Assembly (NCBI RefSeq): GCF_036971445.1
Contig: NC_091482.1
Location: 2,728,001 to 2,792,000 of the forward strand
Length of the DNA: 64,000 nt
Direction of reading: 5' to 3'
Origin: Narcine bancroftii
Taxonomy: Eukaryota
Of the stretch, positions 1,816 through 43,215 are shown one piece after another (positions within the stretch are counted from its first letter, which is position 1; every line of letters starts with the position of its first letter). The translations under genes were made by a program, and so were the position numbers. A model generated the notes under the pieces. The model was not told the origin of the DNA. It worked only from the letters and a program-made list of their open reading frames with translations, and searched no databases.

Positions 1816-2003
1816 TAAAGTATATCTTGTGTGTGACATTTTAATGCATTGTTATGTGATGAAAAAGGGTACCTTAAACCTTGTGTGAGCTACTGCACAG
1901 TTCCCACATTAGATCAATGGTCATGTGTTGAAGACTGTGTAACGTCAGGGCATCCAGTGGCAGTGGAAGGTGCTGAGAACATACTCATGTCCTGTCTCTG
2001 CAG

Positions 2004-2187
2004 AGTGAAGCAAGTGCTGATCGCCCAGGCACAAGCTGAAAAGATCCGCAAGATTGGAGAGGCTGAGGCTTCTTCCATTGCGGCCATTGGGAAAGCGGAC
2101 GCAGAGAGAATGCGACTGAAGGCTGCGGGTTATCGGCAGTATGGAGAAGCAGCCAAGATGGCGATGGTGCTGGATTCCCTGCCCAAG
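2004..2187 (+). CDS. FLOT2: Flotillin-2, third-last coding exon (184 nt)
   Basis: Acceptor ctgcAG and donor GTaacc. Encodes VKQVLIAQAQAEKIRKIGEAEASSIAAIGKADAERMRLKAAGYRQYGEAAKMAMVLDSLPK, the flotillin EA-rich coiled coil, close to vertebrate FLOT2. Confidence 0.95.
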
Positions 2188-2469
2188 GTAACCTGACTAA
2201 TTTCATTCTCACATTTTCCAAGGAATATTAGGTTTAGTAAAGATTTGGGAGCAAATGTGGGTGTGGGACTTGACCAGAATATCCAGTTGGGATTGAGGGC
2301 CTATTTCCTGCTGTGTGGCCATTCAGCTAGTGTGGAGTGGAGCAGGAAAAAAGACTATACTGACTGTAGAGATTGAGAGAGTTGCAACTGTCCCAGTGTG
2401 TGCATGCACAGGTGGAGGGGTAGCGTTTCTGAGTTGTCAGTGGTGCGGAGAAAGAGAAAGGTGGTGGGA

Positions 2470-2980
2470 ACGATTCCTCCAGCTACTGCAGCTCTAACAT
2501 CCGGGCCCACAAGGACCTTGCACTGCCAGACTGAGACCGCCCACAAATTGGAGGAACAATGCATCATATTCCAACTGGCTACCCTCTGACCGGATGGCAT
2601 TAACCTCGCCTTCTCCAGTTTCCATTAGCCATCACCCCCATCTATCCTTTTGTCTCCTTTCCTCCAGCTCTATGTGTCTCTCTTCCCTTTCCCCCAATTC
2701 TGCATTCAAAGAGCAAAGACCCCCTTCCCAATCAATTCCCACCTTTTCTCGTCCTCCTTTCCATATCCAATTAAACCCTGTTGGTCTGTATTCCTCTCCC
2801 TGTCCTTTCTGTCCTTCTCTCCAGCCTTTTAATTCAGGCTCCTTCCTGCATTTCACTCATACCTTGAAGAAGAGCTCAGGCCAAAAGCGTTGGTAATATA
2901 TCTTTCCCTCGCATGGACTCTGTGGAACTGGCTGAGTTCCTCCAGTGTGTTTACTAATATCACAGCATTGGCAGACTTTC
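2470..2980 (+). mobile_element. Penelope-like (GIY-YIG) retroelement 3' fragment
   Basis: Translates to HCQTETAHKLEEQCIIFQLATL*PDGINLAFS, the typical C-terminus of these elements, followed by the shared tail. Confidence 0.65.
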
Positions 2981-3395
2981 ATGCGTTTGAAAAGGGAGAG
3001 CGAGAAAAAAGCAGGCAAGCAACAGAGAAAAGGGATCAGCAAGAAGAGCTGGTGTATGCTCAATACTCCGAAAGTCTGCTTTTTTTCCTTCCTCATCCAC
3101 AGTCAGAACGTGGATTTCTGAGTGGTCTCTGGCAGCACCTGCACGTGATCTGGGTTGGTGTTGAATGAGCACAGTTGGCGTGGGATGCGCGTAGTTGGAA
3201 TTCCTTGGATTAGTTTGAATTCTGTGTGTGAACCTCGCTAATCTGGGCACCCATCCCCAGGTGAGCTCGGACTTTGTTGCCTATGGGCCTGGCACTTTGC
3301 ACAGAGATAGTGAGGCCAAGCCTTAAGAAGAGGGTTGCTCAGTGGAGTGACAGAGAAATGGGGACAGGCCATGGCGTTGTCGCATTTGCCCACAG

Positions 3396-3596
3396 TTAAG
3401 TTTATTGTCATCTGATTGTCCAACGAAACAGCATTCCCCAGTCCTCGGTGCAAAACATGAGACACACAACTGGTCATAACATAGATGAAAATGCAGGACA
3501 AGTATTTTATTGATTAAAAATAAATAAATATTGTTTTTGTATCAATGAGAGTCTCGGATGGTTCGTTCCTTTGGTCATTTCAGCATTCTCACTGCC
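3396..3596 (-). mobile_element. 3' end of a Rex1/Babar-like non-LTR element abutting a FLOT2 splice acceptor
   Basis: Matches copies at ~45340-45545 and ~54655-54890 (AAGTTTATTGTCATCTGATTG ... GAGAGTCTCGGATGGTT ... ATTCTCACTGC). At 45.5 kb this sequence continues into the element's coding region. Confidence 0.75.
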
Positions 3597-3610
3597 CCCT
3601 CTATCCGCAG

Positions 3611-3760
3611 ATCGCTGCACAGGTAGCAGCTCCACTTGCCAAGACAGACGAAATTGTGATCCTCGGAGGAGATGGCAGCCGTGTAACAACGGAGGTCACT
3701 CGTTTACTGGCAGAGGTGCCTGCATCTGTCCAAGCTCTCACAGGGATTGATCTATCAAAG
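3611..3760 (+). CDS. FLOT2: Flotillin-2, penultimate coding exon (150 nt)
   Basis: Acceptor ccgcAG and donor GTcagt, phase 0-0. Encodes IAAQVAAPLAKTDEIVILGGDGSRVTTEVTRLLAEVPASVQALTGIDLSK. Confidence 0.95.
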
Positions 3761-4922
3761 GTCAGTGCCACCTTTCTACAGGCCTACTTGCTGTCAGTGC
3801 GCCTGCTAACTCTGTATGTTGGCTGTTTGTCAATTGTTGCAAGCGTTGCACTCAATGGGAGGCCTTTCAGCCCATCCAGTTTGTGCTAGCCACATTTAAG
3901 AATAATTTAGCCCCAACCTCTTCCCATTGTACGACAAATTATTTTCTTTTTGATACTTAGCAAATGACTTTTGGAATGATACAACTGAATGTGCCCCCAC
4001 CACCACCCTTCACTGCACAGGCTCTGCTGTTCCATGCAGAACATTTCCAGTCTTCATCCTGACTGCAATAACAATGTTAATAATATCTTCTGCATCCTTT
4101 CCAAAGCTTTTGTTCCTTTCATAAAATGTGGCACCTAGAATTTGACACAGTTCTCCAGATGTAACCATAAAAGTTCATCTTTCCTCTTGTACACCTTGTC
4201 TCCAATTAATAAGGCAAGATTACTATATCCTTTCTCAACCACTCTCTTAACCTGCCTTACCACTCTCAATCCACAATATAACTTCTACTTCACCATGTTC
4301 TTGTCTCTCTTTTAGTATCAAGTCCTTCACTTATGTTGCCTCTTTCTTCGGACAAAGACGTAACCTTTCACATCGCTCAGCATTAAACTTCAGCTGCCAC
4401 CTATTTGCCCTCCCCACAGGGTTAAACAAGGAAGTTTGCAGATGCTGGGGTCAAATGCAAGACACAGCAGTGCTGGAGAAACTGCAGGTCACGCAGCATC
4501 CATAGGAAATAAAGGTCTCATGCCCGAGATGGTGGTTATTATTTACAGCCTCTGGATGCTGCGTGACCTGCTGAGTTTGTCCAGCACTGCTGTGTATTAC
4601 CCTCCTCACAACCAGTATTTCTGTCCACCTCACAGTTGGTAAAACCCCATCTGCACATTTGGAAATGGTCCAGGTCATTGATATAAAGGACCCCAGTGGT
4701 CCAGTACTGACTCCTGGGAAAGCTCCACCTTCGTTCCTTGTTTGACATGGTAAATTTTCTATCCATGCATTTTATTCCATGGCTTTCAGACTGGCAAGAA
4801 TGTAACATAAGATGTTGTCAATCACCTTCTGAAAGTTCATATAGCCATTACATGGAATTCCTTCATCCATTTCATAGGAGTAGAAATGGGTTATTCAGCC
4901 CATTGAGCCTGCCCTGCCATTT

Positions 4923-18300: not shown

Positions 18301-19759
18301 TTCTACGCCCCCGTCCTACTGAACTCAGGAGCAGTGTCACCACCACCTTGTAAAGTTGCTTCAATGCTCCCCTATGTACCCCTTGCAGTAAAGGCCAACC
18401 ATCTCCTCTACCTGTATGCGAATATCTTATGTCCTGGTTTCTTCTTCCCACATTTTTCACACATTCAGTTTGAATAAAGAAATGTTTATGTGCCTTCCTT
18501 ACAAACCTCACATTACATCCAAGGGCTTGGTATTACCTTATTTTTAGAACCTTAGAACATTACAGAACAGAAACGAGCCCTTTGGCCCTTCTAGTCTGTG
18601 ACAAACTGTTATTCTGTCACATCCTATTAACCTGCGCCCAGACCATTTCCATCCAAGTACCTCTCTAAATTTTCCTCAAAACATCAACAATGGTCAGAAA
18701 TGAAGCTGGTGCTAACTCCATTAAATAAAGGAAACTTAAGAAAGGAAACATCACAAACCTTATCCAAAATTACAGCGATTTCTCCTGTAAAAATTAATAC
18801 TTTCCTTATATTCCAACTGGACAGCTTCAACCAGACCGTATTAATGTTGATTTCCACTTGCTCTCTTTCCCTCATCCCTCTCTCTCCCCTCCTCCAGCTT
18901 CACACCCCTTTCCCTTCCTCCTGTCAGAGAGTATTGTTCTCAGCCCCATCACCTCAGCTCCTTTCTCTTATTCCCCCTCCCACCTGGTCACCCGTGCTTC
19001 TTCCCCCCCCCACCTTTTTAATCCAGCCGTCCGCCTGATTTTCATCACCCCCAACAAAGGGGCTGGGGTCCAAAACGTCGACCGCTTTTCGCTTTCCAGT
19101 GAGACCTGTTGAGTTTCTCCAGCACTACCTCTGGATGACAAACTTTTTACCCTCTCACCTATCCTATCCATATCCCTCTGTGTGTTCTCATAGCCCCTGT
19201 GCACTGATGCCTGTGCCTGGAACAGATTTGGGCAACAGAGCACAGGATCCCTTTGTCCAAGTCATTGGTATCGAATCTGCATCAGCCATTCCCAGAGGGA
19301 GCCACAGCACATTTCAGTAAAGGCCTTGGGTTTTTTTTCACCTCATAAACATTTTTAATTTTTTTTTAATGCAGTCGGTAGGAGAGAAGTCCAGAAGAAG
19401 CCAAACCTCACAGGGAAGAGGGCCCACAAATTTTGAGCAGAGTCCTGGGGAGGGGACTGTAGCCAAAAAAAAAGGTTGAGAATGGTTGGTATAGATTGTG
19501 AATAGTTGGCTCCCCAGCACCGATTTCTGAACGGACAATGAACCACAGACACTACCTCGATTTCTCTTATTTTTCCAATAATTTATTTGTTTTTCAATGT
19601 AATGTTTACAGCAATATTTGCACTTGATGCTGCCATAAAGCAACAAATTTTGTGATTGATCGCTGTGGACAAGGAGGGAAAAGTAAAGGAGAATAAATCT
19701 TCACAAATTAACCTCCAACCTCCACCTGCTGAAAACCTCAAGGAAAATCACCACAATCT

Positions 19760-19900
19760 CAACCCAATATTAATGAGAAGATTCTAGAAACTAATCCTCT
19801 CGCAGTAGCAATTATCCTAAATGGGTAGTGATAAAGATTACACCCTAGGGACCAAGGCCAACTCATAGGGCTAAGCTGTTTCACATTTATAAAGGGTTTA
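19760..19900 (+). promoter_or_regulatory. Photoreceptor/pineal-type proximal promoter of pinopsin
   Basis: CRX/OTX-type K50 homeodomain sites CTAATCC (19791-19797), AGATTA (19835-19840) and CTAAGCT (~19871-19877). TATAAA at 19888-19893, about 95 nt before the ATG. Confidence 0.7.
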
Positions 19901-19987
19901 CAATCTCCCTGAGATCTCGACCGGGGAAATGGGCAGCTGAGACAGTTGCTCTGAGTCTGAAGGACGAACCTGGCGGATTTGAATGTG

Positions 19988-20325
19988 ATGGGGCTTCCTC
20001 CAGCTTCTCCTGCCTTCTACAATAGAACCGTTGGTGCTTTCAGTGGCCCTCAATGGCCGTACTTTGCCTCAAAGAGCACCTACATGGCTGTGGCCACTCT
20101 GATGGGTGTGGTGGTCCTCCTTTGTGAATGGCCTGGTCATCCTGGTGTCCATCAGGTACAAGAGACTTCGCTCACCCCTCAACTACATCCTGGTGAACCT
20201 GGCTGTGGCCAACCTGATGGTCACTGTCTTTGACAGCACCATCAGCTTCTCCAATAACCTCCACGGTTACTTCACCCTGGGGGAGGCCATATGTCAGTTC
20301 GAAGGCTTCATGGTGTCTCTGACAG
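19988..20325 (+). pseudogene. OPNP: Pinopsin exon 1 (frameshift at ~20117)
   Basis: First frame reads MGLPPASPAFYNRTVGAFSGPQWPYFASKSTYMAVATLMGVVV. The opsin continues in another frame as SFVNGLVILVSIRYKRLRSPLNYILVNLAVANL...CQFEGFMVSLT(G). Donor G|GTGGG. Confidence 0.9.
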
Positions 20326-20721
20326 GTGGGTGCTCCTAAGCTTTGGCTTGTCGCTGTGTGGGGATCTGCCCCTTCTGAGGTTCGTAATCTTGTGGGAGAG
20401 TTAGCTGAGGGATCCTGGTCTGAGCAGGAAGGAACTGTTTGGTCTCCCAGCCCTGTTCCATCATACATTAGGGTTAGGGTTAGGGTTGCCCAGGTCAACC
20501 ATCTGTTCCATTCCCATTCAACCATGTTTGGCACATGTTCCTGAAAGAGTGTGGAGGTGGGGCTAATCAGAGGGTTCTCTGGGGTGGTCATGTCTAAAGC
20601 AAGAAGGTCACGCGCCATCCTGATTGTCAGGTCGTCGGTCCTTCACATCCCTGGGTCTGGACCTGGAACTCTCTCCTTGCCCCGCAGCACCTTCACCAGG
20701 AGAAAGGCAGCGATCCCTATG

Positions 20722-20930
20722 GGTGGCACAGTTAGTGTAGCGGTTAGCCTAACACTATTACAGCACCAGCTACCCAGGTTAGAACTCGTCACTGTCTGTC
20801 AGGAGTTTGTACGCTCTCCCTGTATCTGTGTGGGTTTCTTCCCACCCTTCAAAACGTACCAGGGGTGTAGGTTAATTGGGTGTAATAGGGCACCATGGGG
20901 TCGTGGACCAAGAGGGCCTGTTACTGCGCT
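20722..20930 (+). mobile_element. tRNA-derived V-SINE (HE1-like) in pinopsin intron 1
   Basis: GGTGGCACAGTTAGTGTAGCGGTTAGC head and CTGTCTGTCAGGAGTTTGTACGCTCTCCC...GTGGGTTTC core. Other copies at ~16430-16600, 25100-25290, 35930-36090, 38190-38455, 39235-39470 and 58300-58500. Confidence 0.8.
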
Positions 20931-21423
20931 GCATTCATCATACATACTTGTGTAATAGTCCATCCCGTGTCAACTTCCCCATTTTGGCCCCGACCGCCCG
21001 TCCATCCAAGTTCCCCACACCCTGAATACAGACTCACCACCTGGTCCCGACCATCTGAACACTTGATGCCTCGAACGACGCAGGTACTCACCACGGTCAA
21101 AAGTATGAGTGGTGTAAAAATAGACACACCCCATCCCCCCCCCCCCGCAAATTTGACCCAAAAAACTCAACTATTACACGAGTATATGTGGTGTATGTGA
21201 CTTTATGTCTCCTGCCTTCTCAGGCATGGTCTAACTATGGTGCCCAGATCCTGTGAATGACACCTCCCCCGAGCTGCGGTATCATGAGCTGGAAGGGCCA
21301 ACGGCCTCATCCTGTCAGAGAGAGAGAAAGAGAAGGGGGGGGGGGGTTGGTTTCTGATTAGGACTTGGTCAGGCCGGCATTGGCTCTGGAGACTAAGATG
21401 TATGCTGTGTCCTTCCCGGCAAG

Positions 21424-21606
21424 GTATCGTGGGGCTCTGGCCTCTGGCCATCTTGGCCTTTGAGCGGTACATCGTGATCTGCAAACCCATGGGGAACTTC
21501 CGCTTCCAGCAGCAGCACGCCCTCGGGGGCTGTCTCTTTACCTGGCTCTGGTCGCTGGCCTGGTCCTCTCCACCCCTGTTCGGATGGTGCAGCTATGTCC
21601 CTGAGG
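21424..21606 (+). pseudogene. OPNP: Pinopsin exon 2
   Basis: (G)IVGLWPLAILAFERYIVICKPMGNFRFQQQHALGGCLFTWLWSLAWSSPPLFGWCSYVPE(G), with the ERY motif; AG/GT boundaries. Confidence 0.92.
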
Positions 21607-21914
21607 GTAAGTCTAGGTGCGACGCTTGGGAGGGACCCTCCCCTGCACCACACGTCCCTCGACAACTCCCGCAGGGGACACTGCTGGTCGGTGTCCTCTT
21701 GATTGTCTCACCACCTTCAGCTTCAACCTCCTTCCCTCAACACCCATGGGCAAACTTGTCTTGTATCCCCACAATCACCATCTTTGTAATCATTTTGTAC
21801 ATAACTCCAGCACATAACCACCCTGTTTCTTTCCCCCTACCTCAGCTGGTTCGACTGGTCCATTCTCCCATTGGTTTCCCCCTTCCTTGTTTCCATCCAT
21901 CACCTCAAAGACCA

Positions 21915-23358: not shown

Positions 23359-23504
23359 GGCTGCGGACGTCTTGTGGGCCCAACTGGTACACAGGTGGGA
23401 CCAACAACAACACCTACGTGGTCACACTGTTTGTCACCTGCTTCCTGATGCCCCTCAGCCTGATCGTCTTCTCCTACGCCAGCTTGCTAGTGGTCCTGCG
23501 AGCT
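23359..23504 (+). pseudogene. OPNP: Pinopsin exon 3
   Basis: (G)LRTSCGPNWYTGGTNNNTYVVTLFVTCFLMPLSLIVFSYASLLVVLRA; acceptor cccAG, donor GTGAGT. Not shown in this frame by the ORF track. Confidence 0.92.
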
Positions 23505-35345: not shown

Positions 35346-36709
35346 CTCATCTTGTTAAGCAGTTGTTGTGATTTGATAGATTAAACCAAGGTAGAACTTG
35401 CATGGTGAATGGTAGGATCCTGGAGAGGACTGTAGAAAAGAGGGACTTGTGGCTCTAGATCCATAGATCCATGAAAGTGGTGAAGGCAGGGAGATGGTAA
35501 CTTTTTCATAGAAAGGGTGATGGGTTTCTAGTGTGAGGTGGTGGGATCGGGTACAGTTGTAAAGTTTAAAAGTCATTTGGACAGACATTCATTTGAATAG
35601 AAAAGATTTAGGAGAATTTTAGACTTGCATAAAGCACGGTAACAGGCCCTTTCGGCCCACATGCCCATGCCACCCAATTACACCCAATCGGCCTACAGAC
35701 CCTGATACATTTTCTTTTGAATTTTGAATTTATTTTTTTTCAAAAATTATACATTGTGATATTTTTAATATACAATATATTTAATAGTTTTTTTCTCACA
35801 AGCTCAACAAATAAAACAGTCCCTCCCTTACCCCCCCACCCTTACATTTAGATCTATTCACCGTCAGAGCTTGCATATATTTTAAGTATATAGAGTACAG
35901 TTGGGGAAACTGTTTCTCAGGTACATTTTCGAACGGTGGAAAGAAACTGTTGTTGGTGGGGGGGGGGGGGAACCCACACAGACATGGGGGGAACGAACAA
36001 ACTCCTTACAGACAGCGCTGTATTTGAACCTCGATCTTGATTGCTGGCACTTTCTCAGTGTTGCACTCACTGATACACTAACCATGCTGCCCTAATGGCA
36101 AATGGCCTCTGTCTCACCCTTCCAAAACTCTCCTCTTCAAACTTTCCCTGTAGTAACTTGCCTCAGTCCTAATGACGAATTTTGGCTCGAAATATCTCCC
36201 AGTGATATGGCTTGACCCGCTTAGTTCCTCCAGCAGATTGTGTTTGGCTTCAGATGCCAGTACTTGCCGTCAATGAGACTAGTTCAGCAAGTCACCTTGG
36301 AGCGACCAAGGTTCCCTGCTGCACAGCTGCACAACTGTGACACGATGAACAGGAAGGACCTGTTTCCCTGGTGGAGTCATCACGGACAAGCCTGACTGCT
36401 ACCATTCAGAGAATAGTTTGCAGTGAGGGCAGAAACCTCAACATTTATAAATAATTGAATGAACATTTGATGACTTCAGGGCCGAGGCTGCACTCTTAAA
36501 AACTACGTGATGGAAGCAACATAAACCTCTGTTTCTTCCTGATGTTGGCAGCCAGGGTCAAATAGTCAATATACTACATATCTATGATTCTGTGAATGAG
36601 ATAGAACCATAGAACGTTGCAGAACAGAAATGAGCCCTTTGGGTCTCCTTGTCCATGCCAAACTAATATTCTCCCTGACCTGCATCCCCAACCTTAGCCT
36701 TCCCATACA

Positions 36710-36895
36710 AGGGTATACAGTACTGGTGGGGATGTGTCTGTCACTGTTTAACACCACGTTGCAGTAGGGGACAGGTCTGTCCCTGTTTAACACTAGGGTA
36801 CAGTACTGATGGGGACAGGTCTATCACTGTTTAACACCAGGGTACATTACTAGTGGGGATGGGTCTGTCACGGTGTAACATTGGGGTACAGTACC
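36710..36895. repeat. ~43-bp degenerate minisatellite (GGGTACAGTACTGGTGGGGACAGGTCTGTCACTGTTTAACACT-like), ~4-5 copies
   Basis: Repeated CAGTACTG.TGGGGA..GGTCT.TCACTGTTTAACAC units. Confidence 0.75.
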
Positions 36896-37141
36896 CCACT
36901 TGCCCAACTAGACTGGTGACCTCAGCTGTTAAAATCTGAGCCCAGTGTTTGGTGGAACCTGTTCATAACTCTGTGTGACGTACACTTTCTCGTGTCCTTG
37001 TTCTATCTTTGGGATCAAGGATTGGGACCTGTTCTGAAGTCACTGCCTAGTTAACACAAGGGTTAGGGTTTGGGGGGTTGGCCAGTGGCCTTTGTGTACA
37101 CCCGACAACTCCACCTCACTGTTCTTTGCTCTGCTTTGCAG

Positions 37142-37388
37142 CTGACTGGCCAAAGACCCTGACTGGATTGCCCAGCACGTCTGGCACCACTGCCAGCGTG
37201 GTGATCATCTGCCGGGACAAGATGTATGTGGCACATGTGGGCGACTCTGGTGTGGTGCTGGGGGCACAGGGCAGCCCACCCCTAGGCCAGGGTCAGAGCG
37301 AGGGACCCGTCCACGCCCTGGAGGTGACGCAGGATCACAAGCCAGAGCTCCCCAAGGAGAAGAAGCGGATCGAGGGACTGGGAGGGAG
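37142..37388 (+). CDS. PPM1D: PPM1D exon 2
   Basis: (P)[22 protein letters not shown]...[13 protein letters not shown]...[21 protein letters not shown]; acceptor ttgcAG, donor GTAAGT. Confidence 0.97.
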
Positions 37389-37411
37389 GTAAGTTCGGGG
37401 TGAGGAGCTGA

Positions 37412-37774
<363 letters not shown>

Positions 37775-40354
37775 TGATGGGATGAATGTTGGGAGTTGGA
37801 GATTTGTGCCTGCTGGATGTTGCGCGAGTTGATATGTATAAATGTACTTGCTGCAGATACACACAATGTTATTAACTACTATTGTGTAAATTAAATTAGC
37901 ATAATACACTCTAAGACTGTAAAAGGATAATTAAATTAATACTCGCAGTTGCAGTTAATGCAAGTGATGTTTAGGTAGTGCAGATATGGTAGTTTCTGGT
38001 TTGGGTAGTGTGGAGAGATTTAGATGGCAGCTTGCTGTTGGATTTAAATCTCTTTGCAAACTTGGAGGTACTGGACTGCATGGTGAACCTCTGGAATTTG
38101 CTACCATGGGTGGCTGTGGAGTCCAAGTTGTTGGGTGTGTTTAAGGCAGAGATTGATGGGTATCGGTATAGTCAAAGGTTATTTTTACATTTTTAATTTA
38201 AACAAAAATAGACAGAGCACAGGAAACTGGCCCTTTTTCCCACGAGCCTGTGCTGCCCCATTACACCTATTGACCTACAATCCCTGGTAATTTTTTTTTT
38301 GAACAATGGGAGGAAGCCGGAGCATCTGGAGAAAACGCACACACATAAGGGGAGAACGTACAAACTCCTTACAGAGAGCGCAGGATTTGAACCCCTGTCT
38401 TGATCCCAAGGCACTCTAACGGCGTTGCGCTAACTGCTAGAGTAAACGTGCCACCCTTATGGGGAGAAGGCAAGGGAGTGGGGCTGAATGAGAGAATTGA
38501 TTAGCTCATGATGGAATAGCAGAATGGACTCGACAGACCAAATGGCCTATTGCTCCGATATCTAATGGTATCAGCGAGAACGTTGTGATCAGGGTGAGGG
38601 AGATGTTTTATGATGTTGGCTGCCTTCTTGAGGCAGCATTTCATGTAGATGTTTTCAGTAAACGGGAGGTCGGAGCCAGTGATGGGCCTCAACTAGGTTT
38701 ACTACTTTCTGAATCCTTTGATGTTCTGAACACCTGAGTTTCCAAAGCAGGCCGTGATCCAACCAATCGGTATACGTGCCACAGTTCACCTACAGAAGTT
38801 CAATAGGAATTCTTTTACAACCCAACTTCCCCCAGAATCAGAAACACCACTCTCCAGCACCTCTTGCCGTGAAGACAAGAGTACGGAAACAGGCCCTTCG
38901 GCCCAGTGTCTGTTCTCCTATTGTACCCCTCTAAGCTGTTCCCATCTACTTGCATGGGCAGTCAGACTGTTGGTGGGAGTGACCCTTCTCACCTGACGAT
39001 GAATGAGGCTAACTGCCTGGCTCACAGGCTGGGGGGGGGGGGTGTGGGAGCAGGCATTTCTCCCCCTCGCTTATGTTGTCCTTGTGGCAGGTGGGGGGGT
39101 GGAGGGATGCCACAGTGTCACTCTGACCTTGTCCATCCCTTCATTGGCCTGGGTAACACCATGTAGTGCCAACCCTGTGACCCTCTTGCAGCTGGAACAT
39201 CCAGTGCATTATCTATTGTCATATCCCACTATGTGGGGGTGGCATAGTTAGCCCAACGCCTTTACAGTCCCATCAGTGGACTGGGATTCGAATCCCACAC
39301 TGTCTGTAAGGAGTTTGTACATTCTCCCCATTTCTGCATGGGTTTCCTCCCGGGGCTCTGGTTTCTTCCCACCCTTCAAAATGTACTGGATTGTAACGTA
39401 ATTGGGGAGCATGGACTCATGGGCCAGAAGGCCCTGTGACCCTGTAACTGTGCTTATGTCTGAAATTTAAATAGACATGCCCCAAAATTGTTGCTTGCTG
39501 CAGCCACACGGGTACGTAGGGTGCACCAGCTTCTCTTAAGTTACTGAGACCTCAGCACCAATATGAGTGATGTAAAATCTTGCAACCAGGAAAGGACCTG
39601 TTTTCAGTGAAACACAAAGTCTGCAGATGCTGTGATTGTAGTTTAAATAAAAACAGAAAAATGATCTATCAGTGTCCATAGGAGGTAAAGATATATTACC
39701 AGCATTTCAGGCCTAAGGCCCTACTCAAGGTATAAGTAAAAAGCAGGCAGGCATCTGAATTAAAATGCTGGGAGGAGGAAAGAAAGAGCAGGAGAGGAGA
39801 TAATTGGACATAGATGGAAGGATAAGAGAGGAAAGGCGAGAACATCCATACATCTCTTTTCCTCGAGCTGTTTCTCTCTCTTCCCTTTTCCATCTGTCTC
39901 CCTTTCCACCAACCCTACATTCACGGAACCACCTTCTCTCTGATCAATTCTTACCTTTTTCTCTCCTATTCAAGTCCAATTCTGACCCTTTGCCTGTTGG
40001 TCTGTGCTCTTTGCCCCACTCTTTCTTTCCTTTACCCCAGCCTTTTAATTCAGGCACCGGCCTGCTTTTTACTCAAACTTTGAAGGGCTCTGGCCCGGAA
40101 CGTTGGTAATACATCTTTACGTCCCATGAGACCGGCTGAGTTTCTCCAGCATTTCTCCGTCTTTACCAAGGACCTGTTTATGGGTACTTTCTGTTTCTAA
40201 TTAGCCACCAAAATTTCTGCCCACCACGGGTACGGGGATGTACTAACAGCATGTTCCAATGGGCTGAGCTGCAGGTTGGGTTGGGTTTGGTGATGAGGAG
40301 GGGGCTATGTCCCAGTTGTTGGCCTGACCGATCCCTTCTTGTCTTCTCTTGCAG

Positions 40355-40545
40355 GAGATCTGTGGAGTTACGATTTTTACAGTGGCAAGTTTGTGGTCTC
40401 GCCAGAACCAGACACAAGCGTCCACACCATCAACTGCCGAGACCACAAGTACATCATTCTTGGCAGTGATGGGCTGTGGAACATGATCCCTGCCCAGGAC
40501 GCAGTCACCATCTGCCACGACAACGAGGACAGGAGGCGATTACTG
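40355..40545 (+). CDS. PPM1D: PPM1D exon 4
   Basis: (G)[63 protein letters not shown]; AG/GT boundaries. Confidence 0.97.
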
Positions 40546-40725
40546 GTGAGATACTGGGCCCCTCTCCCCACCCACCACATCCTTGACCTGCCCCACAGAA
40601 CTGCATCTTCTCGGTCAACCTCGATAATGAGTTTGTCATACACATTGCACAATGTACATCTGCATCAAAATACTTGCATGCTGCAGCCGAACAGGTGCTT
40701 TGTCAAAATAATAACTGCAATTACA

Positions 40726-41041
40726 CAGTAAAACCCCTGGTATCTGGCACTGTTCGCTTGAGATTCTGTGTTGCATGATGGCGAGACTCGCCAATTTTAA
40801 TGCTTTGGACGCCATGTCCCTGTTTTTCGGGACTACCAACAAGTATATATACTCTGTGTTCCAGTTTTCTGGGACTGGTTTTATACCTAACCCACCACCT
40901 GGTTCATACTGTAGTTTACCCATGGACCCAACCATTGGCTGTACTTTAATACTGTAAAAGTTTACCCATAGTTTCAGTCCAGAGTATTTTCCTTGATGTT
41001 TTTACCAGTTGCTTCAATTCTGAATAACAGGGGTTTTACTG
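40726..41041. mobile_element. Tigger-like MITE in PPM1D intron 4
   Basis: TIRs CAGTAAAACCCCTG / CAGGGGTTTTACTG. Confidence 0.7.
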
Positions 41042-41625
41042 TCATTGAATTAAAAAGAGACAATAAGTACGAGATTTGAGATGGGACATAAAACTTGAGA
41101 GCACAAGACCCAAAAGTAAAAATGAATCACCACTCTTCACCAGTCATAATTGGTTATTCAAGTTCAGGTTTATTGGGGCAAGGTGCACGGATCAAGGTTG
41201 TTTTGCAAGCAGTCCAGTTAGACATCTTGAACATAGTACAGCAAGTAAGACACAGTACTAAAGAGTTATAGAGAGAGAGATCAGCTGGGAAAGAGCAAAG
41301 GGAAAACATAATTTTACCATATTGGGGTTCATTCAAGAGTCTGATAATGGCAGGAAAGAAATTCGTGCGAGGGAGGCTTTATGGTGGGGGGGGGGGGGAT
41401 GGAAGGAAGTGTGTCTGCTATGGGAAGAAGTCATGTTATGTTGGACATTCTTCAGAGGCAGTGGGAGTCCTTGAATCTGGTGGTGCATAACACTGGTTCT
41501 GGAGGGTGGGGTTGAAGAGAGTGTGGCTGGCGTGGGGGGTGCAGAGCCTCTGGTGTGGCGCTTGCTGCGGCGGGAGCTCATTGGGACTGTGGGCACCCAG
41601 CTAACATGGTTTTGTCTTCCGGCAG

Positions 41626-41865
41626 GAGGAGCCAGGATCCACAAGTGCTAGGCTACTGGTGAACCGGGCACTGGGCCGGTGGCGCCAGCGCATGCTGAGG
41701 GCAGACAACACCAGCGCCATGGTGATCTGCATTGACCCGCCCAGCCGCAGCTGCAGCCCGCTCTGTGCCGAGGAGCTGCGGCTTAAGCTGACTGGTGGCC
41801 CTGCGGGCCAGGCCAAAGAGTGCTGGCTGCAGCCACCGATGCCTTGCAACTCGCCGCAGCCCAAG
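41626..41865 (+). CDS. PPM1D: PPM1D exon 5
   Basis: EEPGSTSARLLVNRALGRWRQRMLRADNTSAMVICIDPP...SPQPK; acceptor ggcAG. Donor AAG|GTACAC inferred from phase and length (240 nt). Confidence 0.88.
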
Positions 41866-42783
41866 GTACACCAGGGAGAGCCTTGCAATGGCACCTTCTC
41901 GCCCTCCCCTGGGCACCTGAGCCATTCTGCAGTTCCCTTCCTTGTCATTCCCCTCTTCCCTTCCCTGAACATCAGTCCCTTTCCCCTGTCCATCTGAACC
42001 ATCCTCTGCTCCCACCCCTCTTTAAATGTCTGTCCCCTTCCCCCACCTACCTCATCCCTGAACTGTCCATCCCCTCCCACCCTCATACTACATCCCATCC
42101 CCTCTCCATTTCTCTGAACCGTCCATGCCCCCTTCCCTGAAATGTCTATCCCCTCCCCCAACTCACCCCCCCTTCCCCACCCCTGAACTGTCCAATCCCT
42201 TCTCCCATCCTGTTCCCAACCTGAACTGTCTTTTCCAATCACCCTTCCCCACTCTCTCCATCCCCTCCCTGTCCGATTCATTGCCCCCCCCAACCCAGAA
42301 CACACCGTTGTGGTTGAGGCAATGGGTTGGGTGGCACAAGCTCCCTGGAGATGACAACCTTCTGTAGCAGCAGTTCCTGCTGGGTGCAGGCACTGCAAAT
42401 ATGAGTACAGAAGATGCCCCCACCCCACTGAGAACGAGCTGCCTGGCCCGGCCCTCAGTACAACCAGGCTGGGCTGTGCTCCTCTTTCCCCTCCCCTTTT
42501 CCCTGCTCCCACCCCATCCCCACCTGTCTGAGCTTGAGTCCTGGGAGGATAAAGCACCTCAAGCTGCTGATTCTGAGGGTTCGTGATGACCAGGGTCCTC
42601 ACTGGTTCACTTGGTAGGAGGTGGGGGAAAATCCTCAGTGCCTCTCGTTTGGGGGGGGGGGGTGGGGGAAGCAGGTGCTGGGGACGGGTACCTGCCAGTT
42701 TCCTTGCAGGCACCCTAGGGTGGCAGCCAGACGGGATGCTGGATATTCCCCTGTTTCTGAATTTCCCTATCCTCTCCTGACAG

Positions 42784-43215
42784 GCTGCTGACGAGATGTC
42801 CCCAACTTGGTTTTGCTCCGGTTTCGTCCCTGTGCTGGCGAGGAGAGAGCCCTGGAGTGGCAGGAGCCCGCCGGCTGAGGTTGCCATGGCCACAGAGAAC
42901 TTGGGAGGGCCAGCAACCCAGGCTGGGGACCGACGGAGGGGACCCTGGACGATGCGGCCTGGCTGGGATGGGGTCGGCGTTGGACTGAAGCGGACGCTGG
43001 AGGAGCTGAACGGGGCAGCCCCCTCCTCGGCCAAGAGACTGAAGGCAAGGGGGGGGCGAGGCAGTGCCGGAGGGGGCCCAGCCGGGACAAATCCTGGGGC
43101 CCCACCCAGGCGCAGGAACACAGACAAACAGGTGACACGGAGGAGCCTGAGGGGACAGCGCCGGCTGAGGAACGCTCTACTCCCCCAGCACAGGAAGACT
43201 ATCTGCGTGTGCTAA
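42784..43215 (+). CDS. PPM1D: PPM1D exon 6 (C-terminal regulatory tail)
   Basis: gacAG acceptor, then AADEMSP...GLKRTLEE...TRRSLRGQRRLRNALLPQHRKTICVC*, matching the human LKRTLEE and HRKTVCVC terminus. Confidence 0.9.
   Translation, partial: AADEMSPTWFCSGFVPVLARREPWSGRSPPAEVAMATENLGGPATQAGDRRRGPWTMRPGWDGVGVGLKRTLEELNGAAPSSAKRLKARGGRGSAGGGPAGTNPGAPPRRRNTDKQVTRRSLRGQRRLRNALLPQHRKTICVC

Follow-up and report, generated by a model that had tools for sequence, protein, structure and literature searches.

A frameshifted pinopsin in the electric ray Narcine bancroftii: a likely unitary pseudogene in a genome with apparent losses of other non-visual opsins

The stretch of DNA analysed here, hereafter the window, spans 64,000 nucleotides of the Narcine bancroftii genome (C29:2728001-2792000) and carries on its forward strand an opsin gene of five exons, the layout of pinopsin, with all of the introns bounded by GT-AG and situated at the ciliary-opsin positions. 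The coding part of exon 1 (19988-20325, 338 nt) begins with the ATG at 19988 and is followed by a GT donor after 20325. Exon 2 (21424-21606, 183 nt) has intact AG and GT signals and encodes the ERY motif along with the substitutions S127P, D145N and T168S; exon 3 (23359-23504, 146 nt) is intact and encodes C187; exon 4 (24757-24996, 240 nt), likewise intact, encodes the retinal-binding K296 and the NPxxY motif; and the coding part of exon 5 (28008-28142), which extends up to the original stop, carries C322W and a short in-frame loss in the tail. All the splice sites are intact, exons 2-5 are undamaged in frame, and the read-through translation of the gene retains the Schiff-base lysine K296, the counterion E113, C110-C187 and ERY. 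A motif scan of the upstream region (19792-19893, forward strand) located TAATCC of the Crx/Otx type at 19792, TAAGCT at 19872 and TATAAA at 19888, which we take to be putative promoter elements of the gene. Intron 3 contains a 52-bp minisatellite (24173-24631; 8.8 copies, 97% matches). The neighbouring genes include a PP2C/PPM1D-like gene (PF00481) at 32307-43212 and, at 1837-3886, the 3' exons of what is presumably a flotillin-2-like gene, for which there is no Pfam hit.

The best matches to the exon 1 read-through query are all pinopsins, with those of the batoids ranked first. The protein joined from the exons shares 85% identity with the sawfish pinopsin over 314 columns, as against 56% or less per exon to the sawfish VA opsin, and in a pinopsin-only tree it groups inside the batoid clade with support values of 99/97. 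The alignment comprised 18 chondrichthyan sequences (eight from batoids and ten from sharks and chimaera) and five from bony vertebrates. These sequence comparisons support the assignment of the gene as a pinopsin ortholog rather than RH1, RH2, LWS or VA opsin. A batoid-wide substitution, D83N, was also observed in the alignment, Asn being present at rhodopsin position 83 in all nine batoid pinopsins, that of the window included, and Asp in the sharks and chimaera.

The reading frame of exon 1 is broken in the first transmembrane helix (TM1), where a single orphan base, the C at 20117, replaces three codons, a net deletion of 8 nt. The initial annotation had proposed a deletion of about this size, outside any homopolymer, from a comparison with chicken pinopsin; the bases that it quoted are found at 20102-20132, the chicken sequence reads as described, the alignment of the batoid, shark and chimaera orthologs bears out the deletion, and the lesion does not lie within a homopolymer. 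The three residues are present in 17 of the 17 chondrichthyan pinopsins that cover the column, the remaining sequence being a short shark model that leaves it uncovered, and the frame encoding TM1-TM3 picks up again one base beyond the orphan C. Translation from the ATG at 19988 runs for 81 residues to a premature TGA at 20231-20233. This stop depends on the A allele of an A/G variant at 20233, where, in the old frame, A replaces the conserved Gly90 (rhodopsin numbering) with Asp and G retains the ancestral Gly. With G, the stop of the broken frame shifts to a TAA at 20255-20257; the stop at 20233 reported earlier thus holds for the A allele and not for the other. In the old frame this substitution is G90D, a change known from human rhodopsin as a night-blindness mutation.

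The spliced coding sequence measures 1042 nt, i.e. 3n+1, and the frameshift is therefore not compensated elsewhere in it. Two upstream ATGs lie in the frame that would rescue the gene, one at 19929 (followed by TGA after three codons) and the other at 19983 (closed by a stop). The initial annotation had seen only the latter. The same frame also has a TGA at 20100-20102, and upstream starts therefore cannot rescue pinopsin. The first ATG in the transmembrane frame past the lesion, at 20217-20219, falls in the middle of TM2 and would give a product of 270 residues lacking TM1 and half of TM2. Three ways of rescuing the gene, through an ATG further upstream, through a second indel that compensates the first and through a cryptic intron, were considered and rejected, none of these being workable. 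A functional pinopsin is expected to have a single open frame with seven transmembrane helices, and the present frame stops after 81 residues.

Eight public sequencing runs match the locus, and contigs from four of them (X4, X5, X6 and X7) were aligned to positions 19600-21750. Run X5 represents sample S1, possibly the source of the assembly, X4 represents S2 and X6 represents S3, the last two samples being from one study. The frameshift is real and not an assembly error, because the contigs of all four runs cross 20117 with no gaps; all of the 103 sampled words are, in addition, present in three further runs. The initial annotation had suggested that the raw reads be examined for the missing bases, and it is the lesion that these contigs carry. 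At position 20233, X5 and X6 have G, whereas X4, like the window, has A, and every contig with either letter also carries the deletion. One heterozygous animal could account for this pattern across S1, S2 and S3; the deletion has thus been seen in three samples of the same species, possibly from one individual. Run X7, labelled "organism B", was rejected as evidence from a second species and is left out of the count of samples: its pieces identical to the locus occur at a depth of about 2.7 and look like carry-over, and a different contig of that run, at a depth of 61 and 89% alike, aligns from 20122, just past the lesion.

Runs X4 and X6 are tentatively taken to derive from RNA, none of the listed runs being recorded as such, and splicing was read from the geometry of the contigs, not from their letters. 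In X4, the end of record 1 (20327) and the start of record 2 (20298) are placed as they would be if the sequence branched into intron 1 and exon 2, both of which begin with GT. In record 8 of X4 (1202 nt), positions 27-212 map onto 21422-21607. Judged by length, its first 30 letters correspond to the end of exon 1, and the other 991 to exons 3 and 4 together with 605 nt of exon 5 and UTR. Exon 2 is represented by exon-bounded contigs in both X4 and X6, and intron 2 is uncovered in these two runs and covered in the DNA run X5. This geometry suggests that the pinopsin RNA is still spliced; the contigs give no expression level. Within 19500-19987, run X4 also covers 390 nt or more on the upstream side of the TATA-like box, and within 20326-20819 it covers the 5' part of intron 1, intron 2 being left uncovered, which suggests an upstream start, read-through or retention of intron 1.

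Searches of the one 3.33-Gb assembly with exon 1 (9 matches among 82 scored candidates) and exon 4 (21 among 97) as queries yielded no second pinopsin copy, the next opsin matches after this locus being LWS, RH1 and RH2; the search for an intact second copy recommended in the initial annotation thus returns one pinopsin locus in this assembly. The protein encoded at this locus differs at 13 of the 198 columns that are invariant in the other chondrichthyans (F88V, G90D, S127P, D145N, T168S, S202T, R245Q, V250M, V258M, V282R, A288T, K311Q and C322W), the same count being 0-1 for the eight batoids and not more than seven for any of the 18 chondrichthyans. Close relatives shield each other in such a count, and a matched six-taxon control was therefore run, in which the changes private to this ray number 24 of 244 in pinopsin vs two of 260 in RH1. 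The end branch measures 0.19 for pinopsin (0.22 in a larger tree) vs 0.029 for RH1. Relative-rate tests are significant for pinopsin in five of six trios and find this lineage faster for RH1 in none of the six; the contrast in rate between the two genes is significant in four of the six (the two remaining trios giving p 0.09 and 0.26), the trios sharing taxa and hence not being independent. Across the 349 codons there is only one inactivating lesion. Simulations with assumed mutation and indel rates give about 8-16 such amino acid changes together with 1.4-4 lesions at 0.02-0.04 neutral substitutions per site, and one lesion is therefore unremarkable; its probability under neutrality in the same simulation is about 0.2-0.5 at d 0.025-0.03. 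These protein-level measures support a relaxation of selection on pinopsin and a decay specific to this gene. Placed against the timescale of electric-ray origin, the decay is probably old enough for the accumulated change and far younger than the group itself. The identity of the gene, the reality of the lesion and its interpretation as a lineage-specific loss, all put forward in the initial annotation, are thus upheld by the 99/97 tree, the reads, the relaxed selection and the single copy found; the cause proposed there is not.

The other opsins of the genome were surveyed as well. Queries with the VA opsins of salmon (135 of 265 candidates scored), goose (106 of 314) and sawfish (108 of 356) detected no VA-opsin ortholog in this assembly, the best opsin exons being those of pinopsin, LWS, RH1, RH2 and melanopsin, all at 56% or less. 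Proteins named as VA opsin are on record from sawfish, maskray, two devil rays and two skates, and none is named for Narcine among the best 120 of the 214 VA-opsin matches listed. The interval between STK32 and DPYSL (C22:3610001-3910000), which we take to be the VA-opsin site in the relatives and which is given little weight for this reason, is gap-free (no N) and contains no opsin trace, with the pinopsin exons serving as the positive control; the paralogous locus on C21 (100 kb) contains nothing significant for VA opsin. An Opn3-like gene at C9:30574900-30603300 (reverse strand) shows five lesions in the assembly: its frame switches twice in exon 1 and once more in exon 3, and in-frame stops occur in exon 2 (TGA) and exon 4; the label Opn3 is an interpretation of an unnamed reference protein, for which ESM Atlas gave no name. 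TMT opsin is represented in the assembly by exon 1 alone (C21:82128743-82129042, reverse strand), which carries odd substitutions and reaches 58% against a TMT opsin named as such, no further TMT exons being found genome-wide at an E-value of 1e-13 or in about 208 kb downstream. The absence of VA and TMT sequences is drawn from one assembly in which the best candidates were scored.

The visual opsins present a different picture, RH2 (354 aa) and LWS (367 aa) being complete and RH1 having D83 and A292, which are not the blue-shifting states. Exon 1 of the rhodopsin gene in this genome is 100% identical to a rhodopsin named for Narcine bancroftii, which places the genome in this electric ray. 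At C17:71600545-71601970 (reverse strand) there are also remnants resembling RH2, decayed and with their exons fused, which may represent a retrocopy. The exons found for melanopsin and peropsin, and two Opn5-like exons, are open. As for melatonin synthesis, AANAT has three open exons (C24:32581670-32590340), and the exons located for ASMT, which are not the full set, are open. Alongside this AANAT, which from its motifs we take to be of the vertebrate type, there is an exon of a second, presumably AANAT-like, acetyltransferase at C11:63798103-63798393. Several non-visual light-sensor genes have thus apparently been lost in this ray, the colour-vision genes being intact. The initial annotation, whose proposed loss of pinopsin is supported, overlooked this wider pattern.

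The above observations are best explained, with good confidence, by the single pinopsin gene of this electric ray, frameshifted in exon 1, being a unitary pseudogene left by relaxed selection. It is probably still transcribed and spliced but would make no photopigment. Its RNA would yield a peptide of 81 or 89 residues, and the stop, separated from the first exon junction by an estimated 92 or 68 nt, would make it a likely target of nonsense-mediated decay. Selection was likely relaxed since extraocular ciliary photoreception, in the pineal and the brain, regressed in the lineage. Such a regression may have proceeded in steps, with VA opsin disappearing along with most of TMT, Opn3 falling into heavy decay and pinopsin being struck most recently, and the melatonin rhythm would then be set via the eye (melanopsin, rods and cones), as in mammals and crocodilians. 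On balance, though with considerable reserve, we favour the view that the whole ciliary extraocular set has been lost (pinopsin frameshifted, VA opsin deleted, Opn3 decayed and TMT reduced to one exon), with two cone opsins and melatonin synthesis kept, leaving a mammal-like, light-blind pineal and brain. This would match, at the level of the genome, an old anatomical claim that electric rays are without a pineal organ; no report of pineal absence in Torpedo was found in the literature searched. The cause of the loss is less certain than the status of the gene as a pseudogene under relaxed selection.

Narcine buries itself in sand and feeds at night, which would agree with the benthic or dim-light lifestyle that the initial annotation offered as the cause, and the pinopsin losses known elsewhere include those of low-light, fossorial caecilians (PMC12836464). 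A general adaptation of this kind, as opposed to a specific regression of extraocular photoreception, is nevertheless unlikely to account for the pseudogene. The explanation is weak because benthic, cone-less and deep-sea relatives retain pinopsin: skates, stingrays and sawfish have full or nearly full annotated pinopsins, and the available texts report its retention in the cone-less little skate (10.1101/2025.07.30.667746) and in a deep-sea chimaera (PMC12952989). The intact LWS and RH2 genes and the RH1 that is not blue-shifted, all in the same genome, also speak against it. The lifestyle cause is thus not supported as stated, and a regression of extraocular photoreception appears to fit better.

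Less probable still is a null allele confined to one animal or population, other members of the species carrying functional pinopsin alleles. The small number of samples, possibly from one individual, the tendency of contigs to drop minor variants and the presence of a single lesion in the gene are compatible with it, but the A and G alleles segregate at 20233 and yet the deletion is found in every contig, and the twelve further changes at invariant sites together with the long branch indicate a long relaxation, not a fresh allele. It is very improbable that the locus still functions, be it because translation restarts at Met 20217, because ribosomes shift frame by +1, because exon 1 contains a cryptic splice or because the transcript acts as a non-coding RNA. 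The apparently spliced RNA in two samples and the retention of exons 2-5, the splice sites, K296 and the promoter motifs would favour such a function; re-initiation, however, drops TM1 and half of TM2, each of the seven GT-AG candidates that restore the frame and measure 60 nt or more would delete much or all of TM1, record 1 of X4 is continuous through exon 1, damaging changes (S127P, V282R and C322W) occur downstream as well, and a single lesion is within the neutral expectation given above. An assembly error, for which nothing speaks except that any assembly may contain false indels, has a negligible chance in view of the gap-free contigs from separate runs and samples, the 103 words in three more runs and the non-homopolymeric site.

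If the likely pseudogene status and the wider loss hold, a ray without pinopsin, VA opsin, Opn3 and TMT would repeat, independently of mammals, their change from light detection by the pineal itself to timing governed by the eye. This change would have happened without the loss of cone vision, and would help to tell apart two causes, a "nocturnal bottleneck" and "pineal regression". The different degrees of decay (one lesion in pinopsin, five in Opn3, a TMT relic and no VA opsin) would offer an order of events.

The loss of pinopsin is a known kind of event, with pseudogenes described in crocodilians, grouse and palaeognath birds and losses in mammals, snakes, most teleosts and caecilians in the available text of PMC11893379 and PMC12836464. 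Automatic annotation may already flag the present locus. We found no published report of pinopsin loss in a cartilaginous fish, electric rays and Narcine included, in the sources within the search, which did not extend to subscription journals; the name "Narcine" is absent from the accessible supplement of PMC11893379, and the chondrichthyan rows inspected in its table S1C all (7/7) have both pinopsin and VA opsin.

Compared with the pinopsins of other batoids (Pristis pectinata XP_051891212.1 and Leucoraja erinacea XP_055513692.1), the gene shares the five-exon layout, K296, E113, ERY and N83, and differs from them in the TM1 frameshift, the 13 changes at invariant sites and an end branch several times longer. 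A close known parallel in kind is the crocodilian pinopsin, a unitary pseudogene of the same gene in animals reported to retain AANAT and ASMT, as the ray appears to do; crocodilians, however, keep VA opsin, of which none was found in the ray (PMC11893379, as far as available). The other known pseudogenes and losses concern birds, crocodilians, mammals, snakes, teleosts and caecilians, whereas the present case is that of a cartilaginous fish. As in mammals, no working VA opsin, pinopsin, parapinopsin or parietopsin was found in the ray genome, and exons of melanopsin, peropsin and Opn5-like genes are present; unlike mammals, the ray keeps RH2, and it has apparently lost Opn3, a gene retained by most mammals according to the available text of PMC5800076. 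In the data accessible from PMC11893379, VA opsin is lost or broken in only three of 249 non-mammals, and the bird Tinamus guttatus is without VA opsin and pinopsin as well as parapinopsin and parietopsin, such that the absence of all four non-visual opsins is rare but not unique outside the mammals.
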